IMG/VR virus record: IMGVR_UViG_3300045125_000119
Location: 82,165 to 146,164 of that record
DNA from: a virus
Length of the DNA: 64,000 nt
Strand: one strand, 5' to 3'
Part shown: positions 24,941-62,895 of the stretch, one piece after another
Numbering within the stretch: position 1 is the stretch's first letter
Layout: every line of letters begins with the position of its first letter
Program-made: the position numbers and the translations under genes
The notes under the pieces: generated by a model
The model's input: only the letters and a program-made list of their open reading frames with translations
Database searches by the model: none
What the model was told of the DNA's origin: nothing

Positions 24941-25646
24941 TGTGGGGCGACGACCCAATTTACAACGTCGGCATCTGTGAGAACGTCAAGAACGCCGCCC
25001 GCTTCTACCCGGACTGGAAAGTGCGGGTGTATTGCGAACAGGCGTGCCCGGCCCATTCGATCTGGCGTTCATGGACGACATTTGTGAGGTCGTACCGTTT
25101 GCCCCGACGAAGATCGGCTCGACTTACTGTTGGTCAAACCTTTTGCAGAGGTATCGGCCGTTGTACGAAGACAACGAAGCCGTAATTTTCGTGACGCAGA
25201 CTCTCGTTTGAGCGACAAAGAAGCCAAGGCGGTGGGCGAGTGGTTGGATTCCGGCAAATCTCTGCACGTCATGCACGACGATGTGACGCACTGGCGGTTC
25301 CCTATATGTAGCGGCATGTGGGCGTTCGGGGCCGGAAATGGCTGCCGGGTCTGTACGAGATGTTCGAGCGGTGGATGGATTTCCGTGGTCACAAAGACGC
25401 CGTCCGAAAGGAACTGGCGGTTGACGAACATTTTTGGCGGAAGTAGTGTGGCCGATGTTCCGGTGTGGGAACTACATCGGTCACGGCATCAGGACCGAAG
25501 GCGAACCGTGGGGAAAGAACGATAAACCTTACCCGCCCCACGAACCTTTGGAATACGGACGATATATTGGTGAGAAAATCTGGGTATCTGAGCCGCCCAA
25601 ACTGCCGAAGTTTTTCTACTACAGGTCAGCGAATAACGGGCAGTGA
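24916..25646 (+). CDS. Putative glycosyltransferase-like protein; frameshifted
   Basis: IISYVLWGDDPIY..FYPDWKVRVY..FRDADSRL..GMW. Confidence 0.55.
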
Positions 25647-26637
25647 GTAGGCGAACGGTTTGCTTTTGTTTTTAACTAGCAAGTCGAAGGCGTTCATTAT
25701 TTCGTTGGCTTTTGTTTCTGCCACGCACGGCTTCGGATGGTGCAGCGGGACTTTCGGACACATTTGCCAGTTGTTGCACGGCCCGCACCAGTCGGGGTCA
25801 CAGTCTTTGTGTTTCTGTACCAGCATGAAGTCGTAGTGTTTTCCGTACACTTTGCCGTTAGTCCAACTGAATATGCCGATCAGCGGTTTTTTCATTCCGC
25901 CCGCCAAGTGAAAAGCCGCTGTGTCGATAGAAATGACGTAATCGACGGCGGCGATTACCGATTTCCACGTCATCAGATCGGCAGTCACGATAGATTGGCA
26001 ATTGAGCAATTGAAACAGAGGCGGCGGATCGGTGTGCATAACGACTACATTGAATCCCCTGTTTTGAAGGCCGATAACCACATCAACAACTGTATTGTCA
26101 AACAGATTTTTTCAGTTCCGTTGTTCGTAAACGGAACGAATAACACCGACGGTTTGTCGCCGATTAGCTTTCTGGCTTCTAACAAATAAGGTGTCGGCAC
26201 TTTCAGGTGCATATCGTGTTTCTGAAGTTCTACGCCGCAACTTCCGGCCCAGATGTCGCTTCTGTTGACGCTACAGTTTATTCCCGTCGAAGCCTCGTAT
26301 ACTCGACACCGGGTTGTGGTGTCATAAACTATGCCATAGTCTTCATTTTTGGAATAGAGGTAGTCGTAGCAATCGTGCAGGAATGGGTGATCCTTGACGA
26401 TTTGAAGGTATTCCTGCGGGCAACAAAAAGTGAGTTCGATTTCCGGCATTATCCGATGGAAGTCCTCGAAGATCATCCTGTGCATGATGATGTCGCCGAG
26501 GCCACCCACACGCCGCCGAGACCAACACTTTGTTGCGACGTTCCCAGAATTGCCGTAAAGATACAGGTTTTTTCCCACGCTTTTTTACCAGACACTTGAA
26601 TAACGTGTTCTTGCCAGCTTTGTTTTTCTTTTCGCAT
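25626..26637 (-). CDS. GT9 (heptosyltransferase-like) glycosyltransferase; frameshifted
   Basis: GGLGDII, VISIDTAAFHLAGGMKKPLIGIF. Confidence 0.8.
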
Positions 26638-26650
26638 TGATACATATAGT

Positions 26651-26815
26651 GTCCTTGAGCGATCCAAGCTGTCTTCAGCCACGGGGAGTTCGACGTTCGG
26701 TCTGTCTGTGAGGATGACCGATCTTCGCCCGGTGGAGGGAACGAGCCATCACAGGGCTGGGATGGTTTTAGCCACCGGCCAGCATCGCCCACCTTGGTAA
26801 AAACCAGTCAAGGGC
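26651..26815 (+). ncRNA. ssrS: Probable 6S RNA homolog
   Basis: Closing stem GTCCTTGA/TCAAGGGC; 5' purine run CCACGGGGAG; 3' CCCACCTTG...TCAAGGG resembling conserved 6S segments; own promoter and terminator. Confidence 0.6.
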
Positions 26816-26850
26816 AAGGAAGGCCAGACTCGTTGTCTGGCCTTCCTTTT
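26816..26850 (+). terminator. Intrinsic terminator
   Basis: AAGGAAGGCCAGAC-tcgtt-GTCTGGCCTTCCTT followed by TT. Confidence 0.8.
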
Positions 26851-26892: not shown

Positions 26893-27695
26893 ATGACCAA
26901 AGAATTTCCCGTTTTAACCACTTGGCAATCAGATTTGATTGCTGGATCGTTGCTCGGCGACGGCTGCCTTCACAGTGGGCCGAGTGGCAATGCCCGATTT
27001 TTGAAAAATCAAGCAATTGTCAAAAGGGAATATTTGCAGTGGATGTACGAGCAATTGCTTCCGTACAGTAGCAATATTTTCGACAAAGAAACTTCTGGAA
27101 TTAGTTTTGTCAGCGGAAAAATCGTAAGTGATGTGACTAAGCCTAAGTTGCAGTCTTGTTGGATGTACACTTCTCGTCATCCATATTTCACTGCTTTGAA
27201 AAGTATCTGGTACAAAAATGGGGTGAAAGTCATTCCTTCTGGATTTGTTTTGACGCCGCCGATTATAGCCATTTGGTTTTTCGATGATGGTCACATTGAT
27301 GTGAGCCGTCATCGAGCCGGATTTTGCACCAACGGTTTCACCTTAGATGAATGTCGGTATTTGTCAGATCAATTAAGGTTATTTGATATTGAAGCTAAAG
27401 TTAGTGTTGAAAAAACAGCAACGGTAATCATCAGCCTAGATTGAGAGTTTACAAAAACCGGTCTTTTTTGGCTTTAACTGAGATGGTTAAGCCGTATGCA
27501 ATTTGGGATTGCTTGGCGTATAAAGTTGATTTGAAAAATTACGTCGCCCCAAATGATAAACCCGGTCCAAAACCGACTGTTACAGATGAGATTAAGGAGC
27601 AAATCAGGAAATTATCACCTTATTTATCACAGAGAAAAATTGCAGCGAAGGTAGGAATCAGTCAGGCTTCAGTTTGGAAGGTGCTAAATGGGTGA
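26893..27695 (+). CDS. LAGLIDADG homing endonuclease with C-terminal HTH; frameshifted
   Basis: IAGSLLGDG, IAIWFFDDG, CTNGFT; LSQRKIAAKVGISQASV HTH. Confidence 0.85.
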
Positions 27696-28317
27696 ATTTG
27701 ACTTAGTTGAACTTAAAAAATATGTAGATGACTGTCTTGATAAGTCGATACTTAGCAGCAGAATTTTGCTTGATCGAATGCGTGTGTTGGATGAGTCTTC
27801 TCGCAAGACTGCCGCTTATGCTGATCCGAAGTATGTTATGTTCTACTACCATTTGGGCAAATTCCTGAAAGCGGAATCAATGGTAGAAGTGGGGTTCAAT
27901 CTCGGCCTGCTTAGTGCTTGCTTCCTGAAATCCTGTAAAACGTTAAAGAAGTATGTCGGGTTCCAAGAACGCCGACAAGAATACTATTCTCCCCGACTCG
28001 GAACGCTTAACGTCAAAGCCAACTACAAAGGCGAGTTCCATATCCACGTCGGCAACTTCACGGATACCGAATTCACGGAAAAAATATCACCAAATTCATT
28101 AGATTTGGTCATACTTAATGACGAGGTTGGTTTCGACAAGCATTTGACCTATCTGGATTTTTTCTGGGATCATTTATCCGCCAACGGCATTATTGTGGCG
28201 GAATACATTGTCCGGCACACACCGGCCAGAGATGCGTTCAGAGCTTTTTGTGAAAGCAAGAGTCGAGAGCCGACGGTGTTTGAAACCCGTTACGGGACCG
28301 GCCTCGTTCAAAAGTAA
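27688..28317 (+). CDS. Methyltransferase-fold protein
   Basis: MVEVGFNLGL, LDLVIL, LSANGIIV. Confidence 0.55.
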   Translation: MGEFDLVELKKYVDDCLDKSILSSRILLDRMRVLDESSRKTAAYADPKYVMFYYHLGKFLKAESMVEVGFNLGLLSACFLKSCKTLKKYVGFQERRQEYYSPRLGTLNVKANYKGEFHIHVGNFTDTEFTEKISPNSLDLVILNDEVGFDKHLTYLDFFWDHLSANGIIVAEYIVRHTPARDAFRAFCESKSREPTVFETRYGTGLVQK

Positions 28318-28384: not shown

Positions 28385-29383
28385 TTGAGTTTCAGCGAGA
28401 ATTACATTAAAGAATCTCTCGCCAACACCGAAAAGTGGGCCAAGACCGGTCTTTTGGGCGGAATATCCGACCCGTATATCGGTCGCCAGCTATCTCGCCT
28501 GATGCAGAATCAGTTGGAGTTTAACGAAGACGGATGGCAAGAGCCGAAGGTTTCGGAAGGAATGCCGGAACCCGATTACAGCACCGCCCAGATGAGGCGG
28601 ATAAGTATCCCCGTGGTACGGCGTGTTTTTGGCAGTTTCTTGCCCCATGCTTTTGGTATCGGTTCAGGTGATTTCGAGGCCAGAGGATCGGTTCTACTAC
28701 ACTGGTTTGGACGAGCGTCAAAACAGTTTGGTAATTACTGCCAAGACGAGATGGGTTGGGACGGACTGGTTGAATATGAACCGGCTGGACGAAGAAGGAC
28801 AATTTAGTCTGGACCGGGAAGCCGAAGAGGTTGCCCGGTTCTGTGAGACTTATTCTTACGATTGCGAGTCCGAAGTCATTCGTGATTTGACCAACAATGC
28901 CGGGAGTTCGGCCAAAGCCGAGTACAAAGACCCGGAGGATTTGGCGAATCTGATCGAAGGCATGGAGCTGCATATATCGGTGCCAAAATCAAAGGTCGTG
29001 AGGCGAACTGGATCGTGGTTTCTCCAAAAGTGGCAGAACTGCTTCGCCCATCTCTCAGCGAATGGGCCGACGGTCCATACCGTGGGATGTTGAGGGAAAA
29101 ATGGAAAGTATTTGAGTCCCGATATCCCGCCGAAGGTTCGATTTTGATGGGCCACAAGGACAATAGGCAGCACTATCTCGCAGGATATTTTTACTGTCCA
29201 TATGTACCGTTTTCGGTTCAGCTTGATTGGGACGACAAGAAACAGCAGTGGCACAACATTTTGTGGTTACGTTACGGGAAGAAGCTGATTGATTCAAATT
29301 TCTACGGGGTCATCGACATATCTAACTTGCCGAAGACTCAGACCGAGGAACCGGCACCCGAAGCGGCGGAAGAGGTGCAATAA
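28385..29383 (+). CDS. Shortened T4 gp23-like major capsid protein paralog; frameshifted
   Basis: KWAKTGLL, LMQNQ, RRISIPVVRRVF, VSPKVA, AGYFYCPYVP, RYGKKL..NFY. Confidence 0.7.
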
Positions 29384-30131
29384 TGGGATACGAAATTACA
29401 TACAGTTATCACGAAAAAGCAGACGAGGGCTACAACAAAGAAGAAACTAAGAGCAAGAAGAAGAAGGTGGGCGATCCTTTCGAGGACGTGCCGCTCGAAA
29501 AACTTGCGTCGGAAATCATTAAATTGATGGCCCGGCGGGACATTTTCGTGGTCGGTTTTGAGATATTTGAACTCGCCAAGAAGGAAGTCACTTTCCGTGA
29601 AACCAGCTGGCGGAATCGTCCTCAAGAACCGCAAGTTTCTTTTCGATGACGACGATCCCGTAACGGTCAGTGAAGCGATTCAGCCGACTCTTCCACGAAA
29701 TTCCGCAGCACGCCCAACAGATTCCGCAGCACATGACTGTATCGGCAGAAGCGCCTCCGGTTCAGCCGGGTCTTCAGCCTCACAATCGTGGTCAACTTCG
29801 AGTGGTGAAATACATGATTTTCGCCCCGAATTGCAGATGATGCCGGAAGTAAAACAAAAGGGTTTGCGGTTTACGCCCGACAAGAAGTACCCTCGTCTTC
29901 CAGATTCAGCCGCACCCGACTGGTATCGGCGAGGTTTTCAAAATGGTGGACGATACCGGTCGAGAACAACTGGTATCGGACAAGTATTTTGTTCCCGGCG
30001 ATCCTGTATTGTTTGCAGATAGGGAACTTGGTTTCTCAGAAAGTCCTTCTCAGAGGGACGGCGGTAAGCCATATTGGGGTAATGCCGCCCAAGAACCCGA
30101 TATGCCCAACTTGCGGTCTGGACGACGATAA
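29383..30131 (+). CDS. Hypothetical protein; frameshifted
   Basis: Coupled ORF fragments in a co-directional run. Confidence 0.5.
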
Positions 30132-30932: not shown

Positions 30933-31916
30933 ATGGCACTGGAATTTGAACCCCTCGATATGGCGGAAGTCGCAACCGAATCTGAACGGGTAAATACCGA
31001 GCAGGGAGCGGGCGACGGCTTCCTCGACAAGTTTGTAAAGCTGCCGGAACGTAACGGCTACGTCATGATGCGTATTCTGCCCCGGAAGAAGGGCCAGAAG
31101 CTTTACTGCGCCACCCGCACCCACCGTCTCACCAATCCGACGACTGGTCAAAGCAAGAGCCTCCACTGCCCGAAGGAACTGGTCATGACTGACCGGGGTC
31201 CGAGGTGGCAGGGTGAGTGCATCATCTGCAAATACTACAGCGACCTGTGGCAGAAGTCGGAAAAGCTTAACGGTAAGGCTCAAGAAGACCTTCAACAGAA
31301 GGCTCGTGAAATCAAGCCGGTTGAGCGGTATTACTACAACGTGATTGTCCGTCAGGAGAAGGACAAGAACGGGGCGGTTCACACGAACGTCGGCCCGAAG
31401 ATTTACTCCTGCGGCAAGACCGTACACGCCAAGATCATGCGTGCCATTGTCGGCGATCAGTCGATGGGCGAAAAGCCTCTCGGCGACATCACCAATCCGA
31501 CCAACGGCCGTGACTTCCGCTTGGTGAAAGCCGTTGTCAAGTCTGGCGGCAACGAGTACCCGAACTACGACAACTCGAAGTTCGAGGAACCGTCCCCGTT
31601 GGGCGAGATGGACGAAATGGAAGGTTGGATCGAGAACCTCAACGACCTTTCGGCTCTGCGAGTCCTCAAGGACGAAGAAGTCCTGAAGCACGAGTTGAAG
31701 GTTCACCTTGGACTCGTGAAAGAAGAGGGTGCCAAGGACGATCTGGCCGAGTTCCGTTCCGCTCCGTCGGCCGCATCGAGTGCATCGCCGTCTGACGCCG
31801 AAGAAACTGTGCGTGAAGAACTCACTTCTAAGCCTGCGGCCAAGGCCGAGGCCAAGAAGCAAGAAGAAGACGTTCTGGCCGACGACGATTTCATGAAAGA
31901 ATTGGGCGAAATGTAA
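30933..31916 (+). CDS. gp32-like single-stranded DNA-binding protein
   Basis: MRILP, CP..CIIC zinc site, RYYYNVIVR, GRDFRLVK, YPNYDNSKF, acidic tail. Confidence 0.85.
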   Translation: MALEFEPLDMAEVATESERVNTEQGAGDGFLDKFVKLPERNGYVMMRILPRKKGQKLYCATRTHRLTNPTTGQSKSLHCPKELVMTDRGPRWQGECIICKYYSDLWQKSEKLNGKAQEDLQQKAREIKPVERYYYNVIVRQEKDKNGAVHTNVGPKIYSCGKTVHAKIMRAIVGDQSMGEKPLGDITNPTNGRDFRLVKAVVKSGGNEYPNYDNSKFEEPSPLGEMDEMEGWIENLNDLSALRVLKDEEVLKHELKVHLGLVKEEGAKDDLAEFRSAPSAASSASPSDAEETVREELTSKPAAKAEAKKQEEDVLADDDFMKELGEM

Positions 31917-31919
31917 TCA

Positions 31920-31998
31920 CAACGGGAGAGCTACTTGGCTCCTACATCTAGGTGGCTCTCCCGTTGGGCCGTGTAGTTAAATCTACACGGCCTTTTTT
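31920..31998 (+). terminator. Tandem hairpins; the second is an intrinsic terminator
   Basis: CAACGGGAGAG...CTCTCCCGTTG, then GGCCGTGTAG..CTACACGGCC followed by a T run. Confidence 0.7.
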
Positions 31999-32028
31999 AT
32001 GTGCATATACAACCACAAGGAGATAGAG

Positions 32029-33276
32029 ATGGCTAAGAAGAAGGCAGCCTCGACCGAAATTGATGATGAGTATTTCAAAGAATTGGCAGAAGCGACCGGC
32101 GGTTCGGTTATAGACGACATCGACAGCGTGAGCTATTTCGTTGACACGGGCAACTTGGCGGTCAACTATATTTGCAGCGGTTTGTTCATTAAAGGTGGTG
32201 TCCCCGGCGGCAAAGTCACCGAGATTTTTGGTCCGTCTTCTTCGAGCAAATCGCTTTTCGGCAACAACATTCTGTTCGGCTGTCAGAAGATCAAAGGCAT
32301 CGCCATATTGATCGACGCCGAAAACTCGGCCAACAAAGAGTTCATCAAGAAGGCGTCTCACGCCGACCTCAAGAAGATGCTCCGTTACCAGCCGCCGACA
32401 CTGGAAAAGGTGTTCGCAAAGGTGTACGAAGTGGTTCGGGCCATTCGTGCGAAGAAAGGCCCGAACGTTCCCATTGTAATCGTTTACGACTCGATCACCG
32501 TCTCGCCATGTGAGCGGGAACTGCGGGAAGTACAACTCCCAGAAAACTACACCCAAGCCGACTTCAAGCGAATCGTCGGTGCAAAAAGTCAGCCCGGCGA
32601 ACGGGCCAAGGTGTGCAGTACCGAGTTCCGCAAGCTCGGATCGTTCATGGAAGAGAACAACGTCACGTTCATCGTCTTGAACCAGACCCGATCCAAGATC
32701 GGCGTGATGTACGGCAACCCGGAAACGACCGGCGGCGGCGGCACCTCTCTGGAGTTTTACGCTTCGTGTCGGTTGCGGCCTCAGACGTATGCGAAGATCG
32801 AAGAGAAGTTGACTTCCAAGAAAAAGATCATTCGTGGAATCAACGTCAAAATGGTGAACAAGAAGAACAAGACTCACCGGCCTTATGTCGAGTCGGACGG
32901 AATCCAACTCACCTTCGACAAAGGCATCAATCCTCTCGGCGGCTTGCTGTCGTGTTTGCTGGACTCAGGCCGCATTGAGAAGGCTGGTACGGGCTATTTC
33001 TTGGTGAAAGAGCCGTGGGCCGGTGGGTCTGAAGTCAAATTCCGTGGCAGTCTCGATAGCGGTAACAGCGTGCCGATGGACGTGCTGTTGAAGTGCCCCC
33101 GGCTGATCGACGCCGAAACGGAAGATGAGGTCAAAGCTTACCTCGAACCGTTCCGGGATGCGATGAACTACAAGATCGAGGGCGACATCGAGCAAACCGA
33201 AGTCGGCGACGGCGACAACGAAGACATTGATTCCGGTATTGACGAGGCGATTGACGCCGAACTGTCTGGCGAGTGA
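32029..33276 (+). CDS. recA: RecA/UvsX recombinase
   Basis: EIFGPSSSSKS, IDAEN, VYDS, LNQTR, GVMYGNPETTGGG.SLEFYAS. Confidence 0.92.
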   Translation: MAKKKAASTEIDDEYFKELAEATGGSVIDDIDSVSYFVDTGNLAVNYICSGLFIKGGVPGGKVTEIFGPSSSSKSLFGNNILFGCQKIKGIAILIDAENSANKEFIKKASHADLKKMLRYQPPTLEKVFAKVYEVVRAIRAKKGPNVPIVIVYDSITVSPCERELREVQLPENYTQADFKRIVGAKSQPGERAKVCSTEFRKLGSFMEENNVTFIVLNQTRSKIGVMYGNPETTGGGGTSLEFYASCRLRPQTYAKIEEKLTSKKKIIRGINVKMVNKKNKTHRPYVESDGIQLTFDKGINPLGGLLSCLLDSGRIEKAGTGYFLVKEPWAGGSEVKFRGSLDSGNSVPMDVLLKCPRLIDAETEDEVKAYLEPFRDAMNYKIEGDIEQTEVGDGDNEDIDSGIDEAIDAELSGE

Positions 33277-51609: not shown

Positions 51610-53702
51610 ATGGAATCCGTCACCGAGGGGAAGATGAATCAACTCAAGAGAATCACCAGTCTTTTTGACCGGAACAAGTTCCGTTCGTTGAATTCCGAGA
51701 TGAGCATGGCCGAGTACATCGACCTGTGCTTGAAGCAGCCCAAGCTGGGTCGCAACTCGTGGCAGATGATTTACGACATGATTATGGAGAAGGGTTACTC
51801 CACGTTCGAGGAGTATCGTAAAACTTACACCCACTACAACTTCTTCGATGACGAGGAAATCCCCATCGTCGGCCTCTCCGAGATGAAGGACTCTTTGGTC
51901 AAATTCATCAAGGGTGCCGCCGGTCACTACGGTACGGAAAAACGTGTGCTGTTGCTGCACGGGCCGGTGGGTAGCGCCAAGTCCACAACCTGCCGCTTGT
52001 TGAAGCGTGGTTTGGAGCGGTACAGCCACACGGACAGTGGGGCGTGGTACACGTTCAAGTGGGTCGGCCTGCCGACCGGACAGGACGGCATTTACACCAG
52101 CGACGAGTGCGAATCTCCTTTGCACGAGAACCCGCTGAAGCTGTTGCCGAACGAACTGCGTCAGCAGGTTTTGGCGGAAATGAATGCCGCCATGATCGAG
52201 CAGACCCCAGAAGAAAAGCGGGCGGAACTTTACACCTCAAGTGCGACGGCGATTTGAACCCCGCTGCAAGTTCTTCATGAACGAACTGCTGCGTCGGTAC
52301 AACGGCGACCTTGAACGGGTTCTAGAAAAGCACATCAAGGTCGTTCGGAAGACTTACAGCGAAGCCGACCGGGTTGGCATCGCCACTTTCCAGCCGAAGG
52401 ACGAGAAGAACCAAGACTCGACGGAGTTGACTGGCGACATCAACTTCCGACAGATCGCAAACTTCGGTTCGGACAGCGACCCTCGTGCGCTTCAACTTCG
52501 ACGGCGAGTTCTGCGTCGGCAACCGGGGCATGATCGAGTTCATCGAAGCCCTCAAGTTGGAAGTGGCTTTCTTGTACGACCTGTTGGGTGCCTCGCAGGA
52601 ACAGTGCATCAAGCCGAAGAAGTTCGCTCAGGTCATGATTGATGAGGCGATCTTCGCACACACCAACACGGCCGAATACGAGAAGCTAAAGAGCAACCAG
52701 TATATGGAGGCTCTGCGTGACCGCACGGTGAAGATCAACGTTCCTTACACCCTCAAGTGGCAAGAGGAAATTGAGATTCTTGAAAAGGACTACGGTCCCG
52801 ACAAGGTGCGTCAGCACGTCGCCCCTCACACGCTGGAAATTGCGGCCCTTTGGTCGGTCCTCACCCGCTTGCAGGACGACAAGGACGGCAAGTTGTCTCT
52901 CGTGGAGAAGGCCGAGCTTTATAACGGCAAGTTGCTCGCCGGGTGGACCGAAGACTCGGTGAAGGAGTTGAAGGACAAGTACCCCGAAGAGGGGATGGCT
53001 GCGGGCGTGTCGGTGCGATACGTTCAGGACAAGATTTCCAACTGTCTCTCGAACAACCACGAATATGTGAATATGTTCATGGTTTTGAACGAGTTGCGTG
53101 ACGGCCTGTACGACTCTTCCTTGCTCGACAAGGAAAAGATCGGTCGGTACACGACCTGCATCGACTTGGCCCTCAAGAAGCTGACGGAAATTCTCAAGCA
53201 CGAGGTTCAGAAGGCGTTGGTCGGCGACGAAGACGCAATCATCCGGCTCTGCACCAACTACATCGACAACGTGATGGCTTACATCAACAAGTCGAAGGTG
53301 AAGAACAAGATCACCGGACAGGATCAGAAGCCCGACGAACGTCTCATGCGTGCCGTCGAAGAGAAGATCGAAATCCCCGAACAGGGGAGCGACGACTTCC
53401 GCCGTCAGATCGCCGCCTTCATCGGCGACTTGGCCCACAAGAAGAAGGAATTCAAGTGGGACAGCAACCCGAAGCTGAAGAAGGCTTTGGAAATGAAGCT
53501 GTTCGAGGACGTGAAGGACACGATCAAGTTGAGTGCCCTCAACGTCAGCGGGGCCAGCGTGGTGGACAAGGACATTCAGGAGAAGATCGACGCCCTGAAG
53601 TCCCGACTCATCAAGCAGTACGGTTACAACGAACGTTCGGCCACCGACGTTCTCGACTTCGTGGGCGGCATCTTCGCCCGTGGCGATCTTGCCGACGAGT
53701 AA
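51610..53702 (+). CDS. prkA: PrkA/YeaG AAA+ protein; frameshifted
   Basis: LLLHGPVGSAKST, DEKNQDSTELTG, GSDSDPRA, FDGEF..GNRG.IEF, HTN, EALRDR. Confidence 0.92.
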
Positions 53703-53758
53703 TCTTGTTTCAACGGGCGACGGAATTGGCCGTCGCCCGATTTCCAACCACTAACCAC

Positions 53759-54499
53759 ATGACCACATATACACTACCTAAAACCAAACTTTGTAAAGAC
53801 GCCTGCGGACTTGTGAAGCTTTGGGAAGAGTTCAATTGTTCAAGAGGCTACGACGGCAAGCACAAATATTGCGTAGTTTGCCATAGATTGCGACACCAAT
53901 CTCTGTGCTTGGCCGCTAAAGAGAAGGTTATTCTGGTCGAGAAGCTTGGCGAAAAGCTGTGCCGAAGGCGATACGGATGCCGATTGTCGAAGCCGTCTTC
54001 AGGGAATTGGTAGATGAATATCTTGTATCAATTGGCCTGCCAAAGAGATTCAACCAGATTCCCCACAAAAAGTCTGTCGGAAAAAGGTTGTCGCAAAAAC
54101 CAGACCGGCTCCGATTTTAAGTTTTGATTTGATTTCAAATGAGTCGAAAGCGAAGTTGTCTGAAGTCAAGGTAAAAGCATCGAGAAGAGTTGAGCCAACT
54201 GGACAACAAGCAATGCACGTTGAAAGAGGGATTTGTTTCATGTGATAAGCAACCCAGCGGCCGAAAGCGTTGAAAATAGGTGGAACACTCGATTACGAGA
54301 ACAGAACAAACACCTATCAGACCTATGACCCTTACCGGCAATATAAGATCGAAGCCGCATGGTATTTCCCCGACAGGAAGAAGTCTGAACAGGATATTCA
54401 GTATTTGCTAGACAGTAAAAGGATATACGACGAAGGGAATGGTTCGAGATATCCTTGCAAGAAGCAACATTAGTTGTCGAACAATATAATCGGAGCCAA
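53759..54499 (+). CDS. T5orf172/MUG113-like GIY-YIG protein with N-terminal zinc ribbon; frameshifted
   Basis: CKDACG..CVVC; KIGGT..YQTYDP.R.Y..E..EWF. Confidence 0.6.
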
Positions 54500-55721
54500 A
54501 TGCCACGCAGAATTGAAGAAGACCACAAGGACTTTCGTGACGTTGTTTCCGGTCGTATTCGGAAAGCGTTGAAAAAGTTCATCAAATCCGGCCAGATCGT
54601 TCGTGGTCGTGGGAAGAACGGAAAGATATCCATTTCCATCCCCAAGATCGACATCCCCCACATCGTTTACGGCGACAAAGAAGACGGTGTGGGCCGTGGG
54701 CCGGGTAAGGACGGCGACGTAATCGGCAAAGACCCGCAAGGGGGTCAAGGCAACGGTGCCGGGCAAGGAGAATCCGAGGGCATTACCATCACCCTCGATC
54801 TTGATGAAGTGTTGAAGTTTATGCAGGACGAACTGGCCCTGCCGAACCTCAAGCCGAAACCGAACGAGACGTTTGAAGACGTAAAAATCAAGTACAACAA
54901 TATCAGCCTGATCGGGCCGGAGTCGCTTCGCCACAACCGGCGAACGTTCCTTCAGGCCATCAAGCGACAGGCGAGCATGGGCACGCTCAACGACTTGCAC
55001 GTTGTACCCGGCAGCAAAGACCCGCAGCGCATCATTACCCCGTGGGACGTGGACAAGCGATACCGTCCAGTACAACGAAATTCGCATCCCTTCCAGTAAC
55101 GCCCTTATCGTTTACGCCCGTGACGGTTCGGGGTCTATGGACGCCACGAAATGCGACATCGTTTCGGACATGGCGTGGTGGATCGACGTGTGGATTCGTC
55201 GTTTCTACAAGCGGACGGAACGCATGTACGTTTGGCACGACACCGCCGCAATGGAAGTGGACGAGGAAAAATTCTACAAGTACCGGTTCGGCGGCGGCAC
55301 TACCTGTAGCACCGCCCTCAAGTTCATCGAGAAGCAGTTCGAGAATCGGTTCCCGCCGGACAAGTGGAACGTTTACATTTTCTACTTCTCGGACGGAGAA
55401 AACTGGAACGACGACAATCAGGTGTTCATCGACACGCTGAAAAATGCGTTCCCGGCCCACGTCGTCAACTTTACCGGAATCACGCAGATCATGGCGTATT
55501 CCTACGAAGGCAGTTTGAAACAAATTGTCGATGTTGCCATCAAGGACGGCAAGCTCGACAAGGAACTTGTCCGAACCGTTAGTGTCGGCAACGAATCGCC
55601 AGCCGCACCGGGCAGTTGGAGCGTGCCGACGTTGAGCGAAGAACAGAGAAACGAACAGATTTTGAAGGCCATTAAGGTGCTGCTGGGAGCCAAGCCGTCT
55701 GACAAAAAGGAGTCCGAGTAA
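54500..55721 (+). CDS. yeaH: YeaH/YhbH (DUF444) vWA-like protein; frameshifted
   Basis: IPKIDIPHI.YG, ELALPNL, DGSGSM, GGGTTCS, WNVYIFYFSDGEN. Confidence 0.88.
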
Positions 55722-57312
55722 TGAGCAGTAAGTTCATGCACGGGTCGAGTATCCTGCTCGGCGACAACACGGTTCCCGGCGTACAACTGTCGCCGGAATT
55801 GAAAGAGCATATCCCCACCATCCTGAAAGCGTGTCGGGATTGGGGGCTGGATTTCTACCCGACCGTTGTTCAAGTTTTGACCTACGACGAAATCTCCGAA
55901 AATTGCCGCTTACGGCGGCTTTCAGTCAGAATATCCCCACTGGCAATGGGGCATGGAGTACGAAGAACTCCAGCGTGGGTACAGTACGGGATGCACAAAA
56001 TCTACGAGATGGTGATTAACACCAACCCGTGCTATATTTGGAATTTGTCGTCAAACAGCTTGTTGGATCACTTGACGGTCGTTGCCCACGCCACGGGGCA
56101 CAACGACTTTTTCAAGAACAACATCCACTTCAGTGCGACCGATACCAACATGCTCAACAAGATGGCGAATCACGGCACTCGTATTCGCCGCTATATGACA
56201 CGTTGGGGCAAAGAGCGGGTGATCGAGTTCATCGACCACGTTCTTCGCATCGAAACGTTGATCGACGGGTCCAAAGCTTGGAACCAGAAGATCATCCGGG
56301 ACCGCACCCTTGTTGACCAGCGTAAGTACCGGCAGCCTCGGCGGTTGAAGGTCGAGCGCCAGCGGCTCTACATGGAGCCGTTCATTAACACCAAGCAGTT
56401 CCGTCAGGAAGAGAACGAGCGGATCGCCAAGGCTGACACTGGCGGATGAAATCGGTCTGTTCTCGGAACCCACGAAAGACATCATGGGGTTCATTCGTGA
56501 CAACGCACCTTTGAAACCGTGGCAGGCCGATATAGTCTCGATGCTTTACGAGGAAAGTCTGTACTTCTTCCCCAGCGACAGACGAAGGTCATGAACGAGG
56601 GTGGGCGAGCCTGACTGACCACGAAATCATGGCCCGCCAAGGCTACGTCGGGCTTGGTCAAAGAGCCACGACTGCGGCATCGTAGAGTATGCGGCTCACA
56701 AGATGGGGGTCTTGGGCGGTAAGTACAGCATGAACCCTTACAAGCTTGGGTTCTATTTGTTCCTCGATATCGAAGAACGGTGGAACAAGGGTCAGTTCGG
56801 TACGGAATGGGACGAATGCACCGATATCAGGAAGAAAGAAGCGTGGGACACTGGTGCGAAGCTCGGAAGAAGATTTTTTGAGGTCTGCAAATACTATGAT
56901 GACCTCACATTCCTGAACGAGTTTTTCACCGAGGATTTCTGCCGCCAGCAGGAGTATTTCCACTGGAAGCATTATCCCAATGGTGAATATCGTATCGAAA
57001 GTCGGGATTTCAAGAAGATTAAAGAAGGGTTGATGAGACGGCACCTTAACGGTGGCCTCCCGGACATCAAGTTGACGGAGCCGAACTACCGTGGCAAGGG
57101 CTATCTCATGCTGCAACACGATCACGACGGTCGGCCGATATGACGACCCTTATGTGAAAGACGTTCTTGCATCTCTCAGGTTCCTGTGGGGGAACGACGT
57201 GTATTTGGCTACCAAGACCCAAGATGGCGAAGAGGCCATTTACGGGTGCTACGGTCCAGGCCCGGACGATGTGGAATGTGTTAACCGAAAGAACACATTA
57301 GAACACTGGTAA
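55721..57312 (+). CDS. spoVR: SpoVR/YcgB family protein; frameshifted
   Basis: GLDFYP, KIYEMVINTNPC, VVAHATGHNDFFKNN, NPYKLG, L.L.H.HDG. Confidence 0.9.
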
Positions 57313-62484: not shown

Positions 62485-62838
62485 GGGGGTGACGGGTTTC
62501 GACGGATTGTGTCTGAGTTTGGGTGGCACGCACTGGAGCATGATCGTCGAAGGCCAGTATAAAAGTCGATCACGCCTTAACCGGCGGGAACGTTCTCTCG
62601 CAATGGCGGCTTGACCGCCAAGGTTACGGCAGCGACGTGGGTAGCGTCTGTGGCTACGCCTACATATCCCGCTGGCTCCAAGTTCTTGCAGCCACGACTT
62701 GAGTGAGAAATGATGCTGTATGCCGAAGTCAACCTTTTTCCGATGTGGTTGATTAGGCGAGATTGGAACAACGGAATAAGCGTGTAGAGGCTCATTCTTT
62801 GAGCGGTTCGGACGAGGGTTCAGTTCCCTCCACCTCCA
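62485..62838 (+). ncRNA. ssrA: tmRNA
   Basis: 5' GGGGGTGACGGGTTTCGAC; 3' GAGGG-TTCAGTT-CCCTC-CACCTCC-A with a G3-U pair; tag ...ERSLAMAA* (62588-62614); TTGACA promoter at 62440. Confidence 0.93.
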
Positions 62839-62895
62839 CATTTCGTCCCAGCGTGCGATTGACGTGGGTGGTGCCTTTCTGGAGACTTCTGGCGT

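Follow-up and report, generated by a model that had tools for sequence, protein, structure and literature searches.

The stretch of DNA analyzed here (the window, 64,000 nucleotides) covers positions 82165-146164 of a linear virus record, 146 kb long and with an estimated completeness of 34%. It encodes gp23-, gp32-, UvsX-, DnaB- and terminase-like proteins together with a tmRNA, which identifies its source as a huge T4-like phage, and the genes of this assembly contain many one-base errors. The RNA gene studied here lies between a divergent glycosyltransferase gene, in which sequencing run X1 shows a one-base insertion at 26106, and a LAGLIDADG homing endonuclease gene (Table 1). The endonuclease insertion (26893-27695, + strand) has a probable frameshifted helix-turn-helix (HTH) tail. 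It falls outside the conserved RNA unit, other loci having a different downstream neighbor, and an X1 contig departs from the window sequence at 26850, directly 3′ of the terminator.

Downstream of the methyltransferase-like gene, which served as the synteny anchor, the replication module contains a short gp23-like gene with a major capsid fold (28385-29383, +), whose relatives are ~320-400 aa long and which was found in 16 neighborhoods and was missing from others. It is followed by c1 (29383-30022, +; L446:14553-15296 in a relative), a conserved protein of ~250 aa for which two small domains rich in beta structure are predicted, one of them (the second) SH3/Tudor-like, and for which a fold search gave no match at E ≤ 0.001. 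Another conserved protein, c3, is weakly UvsY-like. The tmRNA (62485-62841, +; Rfam, 86.4 bits) was missed by ARAGORN, which found one in 7 of 7 scanned relatives, and its tag frame seems disrupted by a one-base assembly error. At 52241-56446 (+) lies a probable PrkA/YeaH/SpoVR-like cluster (PHROG "sporulation protein" match), ~57% identical to cellular copies. The best cellular matches of the PrkA-like protein are a mixture of Myxococcota and Planctomycetota, and the IF3 of a related phage shares 35-49% identity with Planctomycetota versus 36-46% with others.

Table 1 Features of the RNA gene and its surroundings (window coordinates).
Feature	Position	Strand	Details
Glycosyltransferase family 9 gene	25626..26578	-	Divergent; frameshifted in the assembly; Pfam PF01075
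Putative late-type (T4 gp55-like) promoter motif	26639..26646	+	Degenerate form upstream of homologs
Non-coding RNA, ~167 nt, new family	26649..26815	+	Putative 5′ end; 105.7 bits with model R1, whose training set included this sequence
P1 closing stem, 5′ strand	26651..26658	+	Pairs with 26808-26815; 87% of cells paired, double changes in 6/7 pairs
Conserved pyrimidine-rich single-stranded element	26671..26677	+	Central C in 38/46, U in 43/46
Arm A	26679..26735	+	P2 26679-26686 / 26728-26735 (variable); hinge bulge; P3 26695-26702 / 26716-26723; apical loop 26703-26715
Kissing helix, loop side	26706..26711	+	Pairs with 26749-26754; 98.1% of cells paired, double changes in 6/6 pairs
Arm B	26742..26787	+	P5; 7-nt bulge 26748-26754 with kissing strand; P4 26755-26766 / 26771-26780; bulged A 26762
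Small variable hairpin P6	26794..26807	+	Predicted by single-sequence folding; varies across the family
Intrinsic terminator	26816..26850	+	14 perfect pairs (26816-26848) and T run
LAGLIDADG homing endonuclease gene	26893..27444	+	Behind the terminator; Pfam PF03161
Methyltransferase-like gene	27688..28317	+	Conserved; synteny anchor
gp32-like SSB and UvsX-like recombinase genes	30933..33276	+	Core module containing the RNA

The description in the first-pass annotation, a non-coding RNA gene that stands alone behind a late-type promoter motif and has its own terminator, is supported: the 8-bp closing stem starts 4 nt 3′ of an 8-mer, and the unit is followed by a perfect 14-pair hairpin with Ts after it, all as claimed. 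The further claim that the 8-mer is a recurring phage motif held in part. Its exact form occurs only twice in the window (0.52 expected by chance), a count reached by 11 of 100 shuffles, whereas a degenerate form lies immediately upstream of 43 of 51 family members, the other eight mostly carrying a one-base variant of it (by inspection). T-run hairpins likewise follow most homologs, again by inspection. Folding of the region, terminator counted in, beats 200 of 200 shuffles (z = -4.3). Model R1 (see below) finds the gene once in the genome record, and a close strain in run X1 shows just two differences across 26617-26850, at 26648 and 26817; hence the RNA sequence is no assembly artefact.

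A phage RNA family with a loop-bulge kissing fold

Loci were collected through neighboring proteins, gp32 and an alignment of the methyltransferase-like gene, and homologs of the RNA sit at the syntenic position in related huge T4-like phages. A covariance model (R1) built from 38 sequences matched 27 of 71 and 28 of 63 sources in two overlapping sets, counts that cover part of the fetched loci and leave out obvious duplicates and very short loci. The final alignment, A4, comprises 46 distinct sequences of 125-208 nt with pairwise identities of 29-94% (median 45%). Divergent copies were recovered by inspection or by searches run without filters (L411, L174, L194/L195, L196, L300 and L248; E from 1e-12 to 1.5e-3), and two weak ones (L217 and L199; E 2-4.5) were accepted on position, promoter, terminator and kissing complementarity. 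At many other loci no copy was seen near the anchor gene. As the RNA of one genome (G005) lies ~13 kb away from that gene, such loci do not demonstrate absence; another genome (G001) scored 0 in the genome-level model search, yet yielded copy L195 once the filters were off, which means that searches of this kind miss divergent copies and that absence is not claimable for any record. One syntenic promoter-terminator unit (L182:2340-2610), which does not score with model R2, may contain a reduced or replaced RNA.

No cellular copy was detected by R1 in any of 151 Planctomycetota genomes under strict filters, with 18 candidates scored per genome, a setting that weak copies could escape. Three matches came from metagenome-assembled genomes (MAGs): a contig with the phage anchor gene (G023), a 546-kb phage contig (G022) and a weak match (G024, E 0.04). 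The 546-kb contig (G022:C90, L441-L468), found inside a bacterial MAG, carries 55 tRNAs, a tmRNA, IF3 and sigma factors in addition to the kissing-loop RNA, and the G023 MAG holds other phage contigs of the same clade.

Blastn against annotated phages gave nothing meaningful. At gathering score, Rfam reported only the tmRNA in the window, and E-value scans of the region and of 15 loci returned terminator-type noise only, with no family match; models for tRNA, SRP and Y RNA gave no score. A bacterial Y RNA was considered and rejected, as TROVE genes are present in 2 of 5 genomes, distant from the RNA, and no Rfam match was found. The TROVE (Ro60-like) genes of two related phage records are at G001:C1:153323-154177 and G017:C1:127931-128089. 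No description of this RNA was found in the literature searched, although a fragment may figure among the ~10,000 candidate viral RNAs of PMC10690425, of which a part was available. On sequence evidence, the RNA is a new, uncatalogued family among the stand-alone structured phage RNAs.

From 5′ to 3′, the fold consists of P1, a single strand with the pyrimidine-rich element, arm A, arm B, an A-rich stretch and the variable hairpin P6. In an unbiased all-pairs covariation scan, the predicted pairs ranked top and P5 was revealed. In A4, 87.6% of the cells pair, compared to 62.5% after shuffling and 34-42% with slid partners; this alignment was fitted to the nested structure, the kissing helix lying outside that model. 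A MAFFT alignment (A3) gave 84.2% paired overall and 98.7% for the kissing helix.

The kissing helix, 6 bp long, joins the tip loop of arm A to the bulge of arm B. In this helix, 26 Watson-Crick double changes fell on single branches of a tree from which the kissing columns had been left out, against an average of 0.55 and at most 6 in 2000 null draws. The kissing 6-mer comes in 19 types among 45 members with pairing retained. The alignments fit kissing within one molecule and between molecules alike. The surrounding geometry is nearly fixed: the apical loop of arm A has 13 nt in 43/46 members, the arm B bulge has 7 nt in 45/46, and the A-rich stretch begins 12 nt 3′ of P4 in 38/46. P3 (82% paired) shows double changes in 8/8 pairs, and P4 is 96.5% paired, its bulged A and the next U-A pair being invariant (46/46); by inspection, the most divergent members (L199, L217 and L248) seem to lack this motif. 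A U-U mismatch is conserved as well, and a non-canonical pair within the loop covaries; the best-conserved bases lie in the tertiary core and not in the junction. P1 is weak or absent in the shortest members (125-127 nt), and the pyrimidine-rich element varies in length by one base. Two members (L275:899-1106 and L300:2300-2496) have a long additional hairpin inserted at the P4 tip, and the P4 loop is hence not essential.

Neighboring genes and probable late transcription

In 18 of 50 loci, the gene next downstream is oriented convergently and mostly encodes UDP-galactopyranose mutase; elsewhere it varies. With a convergent next gene at these loci, the RNA must act in trans. Its independence from neighboring genes, like the gene unit, the family and the loop-bulge kissing fold, can be accepted with little reservation.

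Across 8 phage sequences, the promoter motif was found in sense orientation in 79 of 1237 gene-upstream windows, versus 41 in antisense and ~40 after shuffling, an enrichment of about twofold; in the present record (G000), only 1 of 130 such windows contains it. The genes it leads are mostly unannotated and only a few are structural, with matches to a head-tail adaptor, a tail sheath stabiliser, a terminase and a Clp-like head protease among them. A gp55-like late sigma factor is encoded by G016 (phrog_234, E 6.6e-8), with homologs at 55-62% in G022:C90 and G018, and none was found in this 34%-complete record, in G001 or in G002. Small sigma70-region-2 genes are present in 4 of 5 phage records, one to four in each. 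A search for an RNA polymerase beta gene was negative for all 4 phage records examined and for the 546-kb phage contig. Judging from gene content, the phage clade appears to rely on the host RNA polymerase, and late transcription of the RNA by a gp55-like sigma factor is quite likely.

Candidate roles of the RNA

The pyrimidine-rich element showed no preference for its own over swapped partners when tested against its own terminator and the start regions of three neighboring genes. As the folded core is conserved and no antisense partner survived the swap controls, the RNA more likely acts through its shape, on a protein or a ribonucleoprotein, and we consider it probable that a protein, and not base pairing, mediates its effect. 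Host RNA polymerase comes first among the targets on account of the apparent dependence on it, the phage's own sigma factors, the lack of a detectable 6S RNA and a junction that is loosely bubble-like. Our tentative main reading, to which we assign a probability of roughly 28%, is that this stand-alone folded RNA may be a shape-based decoy of a protein machine, with host RNA polymerase as the most plausible one, by analogy with 6S, Ms1 or CoRP RNA but with a different fold. The proposal in the first-pass annotation that it sequesters the sigma70 holoenzyme as an early-to-late switch is conceivable.

In such a mechanism, the open junction, with its pyrimidine-rich 5′ strand and its A-rich 3′ strand carrying a small hairpin, would mimic the bubble of an open promoter, the upstream duplex would have its counterpart in arm B with the kissing helix as a brace, and holding the housekeeping holoenzyme would favor the phage's own sigma factors. 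This mechanism is the most speculative part of the explanation. The fixed spacing between P4 and the A-rich stretch speaks for the decoy reading. The available part of PMC8876501 reports that a bubble between two short helices is enough for basic 6S function, that short-armed 6S variants still work in vitro and that Bacillus subtilis 6S-1 has a hairpin within its 3′ bubble, and the available part of PMC11077062 describes Ms1 and CoRP as RNA polymerase-binding RNAs beyond the 6S family. On the other hand, the strands flanking the junction are not paired together upstream, unlike those of a promoter, and no continuous upstream duplex exists; the closing stem is short, and weak or missing in the 125-127 nt members, the best-conserved bases fall outside the junction, and there is no -7U equivalent.

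An RNA for virion assembly, in which intermolecular loop-bulge pairing builds a dimer or ring and the stem with the bulged A is a capsid or motor site, is unlikely, though several features suit it. The phi29 prohead RNA (pRNA) reportedly forms a dimer or ring via intermolecular pairing and uses the same pair of elements, a hairpin loop and a bulge loop. The late-type promoter motif, the variability of the kissing 6-mer (19 types in 45 members) under retained pairing and the gp23-like gene just downstream in 16 loci also fit. However, the RNA lies among replication and recombination genes, the P2/P3 hinge bulge and the tolerated loss of P2 suit a single-molecule fold, and T4-type terminase motors are not known to require RNA.

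We consider just as unlikely a ligand of the translation machinery: a compact RNA that binds ribosomes or resembles a tRNA, or else one whose pyrimidine-rich strand acts as an anti-Shine-Dalgarno decoy. The clade has a tmRNA, many tRNAs, IF3 and peptide deformylase, and the 5′ element could pair with purine-rich ribosome-binding sites, but the start regions of the three neighboring genes gave no own-over-swapped pairing (p = 0.95, 0.90 and 0.29), the element varies in length by one base and the tRNA, SRP and Y RNA models do not score.

The conserved place of the RNA, between the DnaB gene / a UvsY-like gene and the methyltransferase-c1-c2-gp32-UvsX block, might instead reflect a regulator or scaffold of the replication-recombination module, for example by titrating gp32 or binding the neighboring conserved proteins. 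According to the available part of PMC10690425, a pseudoknot in the leader of T4 gp32 is bound by gp32 itself, and a small domain of SH3/Tudor-like type is predicted in c1 (again with no match at E ≤ 0.001). We regard this candidate role as slightly less likely still: synteny was the search criterion, which partly builds in the linkage, and the RNA of G005 is ~13 kb from the anchor.

A new ribozyme or aptamer class is improbable. The rigid core, fixed loop sizes, invariant bulged A, U-U mismatch and covarying non-canonical loop pair would be in keeping with catalysis or ligand binding, but no Rfam ribozyme model scores, no substrate is evident and the P4 motif is seemingly lost in L199, L217 and L248. 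We see an equally slim chance for a small RNA that base-pairs with phage or host mRNAs. Its 5′ segment is single-stranded, and in 5 of 8 genomes the start regions of c1 came among the 25 best-ranked; the c1 signal, however, was gone in the swap control (own -12.65 versus swapped -12.51 kcal/mol), and the longest exact matches in the own phage genome are no longer than those in other genomes.

The first-pass annotation had identified the RNA as a probable phage-encoded 6S RNA. With 6S defined as in the available part of PMC8876501, this identity does not stand, there being no score with the 6S model (RF00013), a different fold backed by covariation, a closing stem of ~9 bp and no conserved -7U equivalent. 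Cmsearch with RF00013 found no match at E ≤ 10, neither in the 701-base region nor over the whole record, and none on 15 loci at E ≤ 1 or E ≤ 10. Covariation shows a multi-arm structure with a kissing helix in place of the rod with a central bubble. As a control, RF00013 matched 56 of 121 Planctomycetota genomes, 33 of them above the cut-off, and the model is thus able to see 6S RNA in one candidate host phylum. Some planctomycetes may nevertheless have undetected 6S forms, since 6S was not found in Pirellula, Rhodopirellula and Thermogutta according to the available part of PMC5673643, which thus has it absent from some Pirellulales.

Direct comparisons pointed the same way. The phage family and 25 planctomycete 6S RNAs did not find one another in profile searches, and R1 scored none of the 20 of them that were compared with it. 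In single-sequence folds, the closing stem measures 6-11 bp in 40/46 phage RNAs versus at least 18 bp in 24/25 6S RNAs, and single hairpins were predicted for 1/46 versus 16/25. No conserved U lies 4 nt past the conserved A, hence no -11A/-7U pattern. The 3′ segment put forward as a 6S motif (26788-26795) does resemble the 3′ bubble motif of planctomycete 6S RNAs, but it is peculiar to this copy, the family being A-rich there. A search pattern made from the two claimed motifs matched 130 viral loci, and by inspection none was a homolog. Canonical 6S RNA was not found in 20 of 20 phage records, and 6S RNA is not mentioned in the available part of PMC7162821 or in that of the main text of PMC10690425. 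Size, end pairing and the planctomycete-like 3′ segment of this one copy would favor a truly diverged 6S family member, the strict form of the earlier claim; given the missing RF00013 score, the lack of profile similarity and the topology backed by covariation, we find this very improbable.

A riboswitch or attenuator of the downstream gene, which the order promoter-folded RNA-terminator and a kinked arm with a loop pseudoknot (evoking the SAM-I and c-di-GMP-II folds) would bring to mind, is excluded for practical purposes, because the downstream gene is convergent in 18/50 loci and otherwise variable, leaving no consistent leader position, and because the 5′ element shows no own-over-swapped antiterminator pairing with its own terminator (p = 0.90).

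Significance and comparison with known RNAs

The fold persists in huge phages whose genome GC ranges over 37-56% and in which the neighboring protein has drifted to ~35-65% identity, and hence the RNA probably does something important. Were binding to RNA polymerase true, the RNA would amount to a switch of host transcription encoded by a phage, of which we found no earlier report in the literature searched; were either polymerase binding or ring formation true, the RNA would be categorically new. That it is a core gene of the whole huge T4-like clade and founds a new RNA class, as a non-6S polymerase decoy or as a pRNA-like ring in a terminase phage, is a prospect to which we give well under even odds. 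Irrespective of its target, the RNA offers a natural case of loop-bulge kissing that is small and well defined.

The phage RNA shares with 6S RNA (RF00013) a stand-alone gene, a length class of ~170-200 nt and paired 5′ and 3′ ends, and with B. subtilis 6S-1, as far as the available part of PMC8876501 describes it, a central region that is open and holds a small hairpin on its 3′ side. It differs in that the 6S model gives no score, the rod is replaced by three arms and a loop-bulge kissing helix, the closing stem is short and the carrier is a phage genome. Ms1 and CoRP (PMC11077062, in its available part) set a precedent for polymerase binding outside 6S, which would extend to the phage RNA by analogy; they are longer (~300 nt and ~516 nt, respectively) and both actinobacterial, and the phage RNA has no Rfam match. 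T4 RNAs C and D, as well as GOLLD and ROOL (10.1101/2024.12.08.627333), are similar in being structured non-coding RNAs of phages or prophages without a known job. No similarity to any of these four was detected, and the RNA described here does not lie in a tRNA cluster. GOLLD and ROOL are also much larger.

The phi29 prohead RNA is likewise a phage RNA of ~170 nt whose hairpin loop pairs with a bulge loop. Its arm order is reversed relative to the RNA described here, and it forms a podovirus ring between molecules. It also differs in that its Rfam model gives no score here and in that the genome carrying the present RNA is that of a T4-like phage with a terminase. The branched kissing loop of RNA nanotechnology is also a six-pair interaction between a hairpin loop and a bulge; that motif was engineered, whereas the loop-bulge kissing of the phage RNA is natural and evolutionarily conserved.
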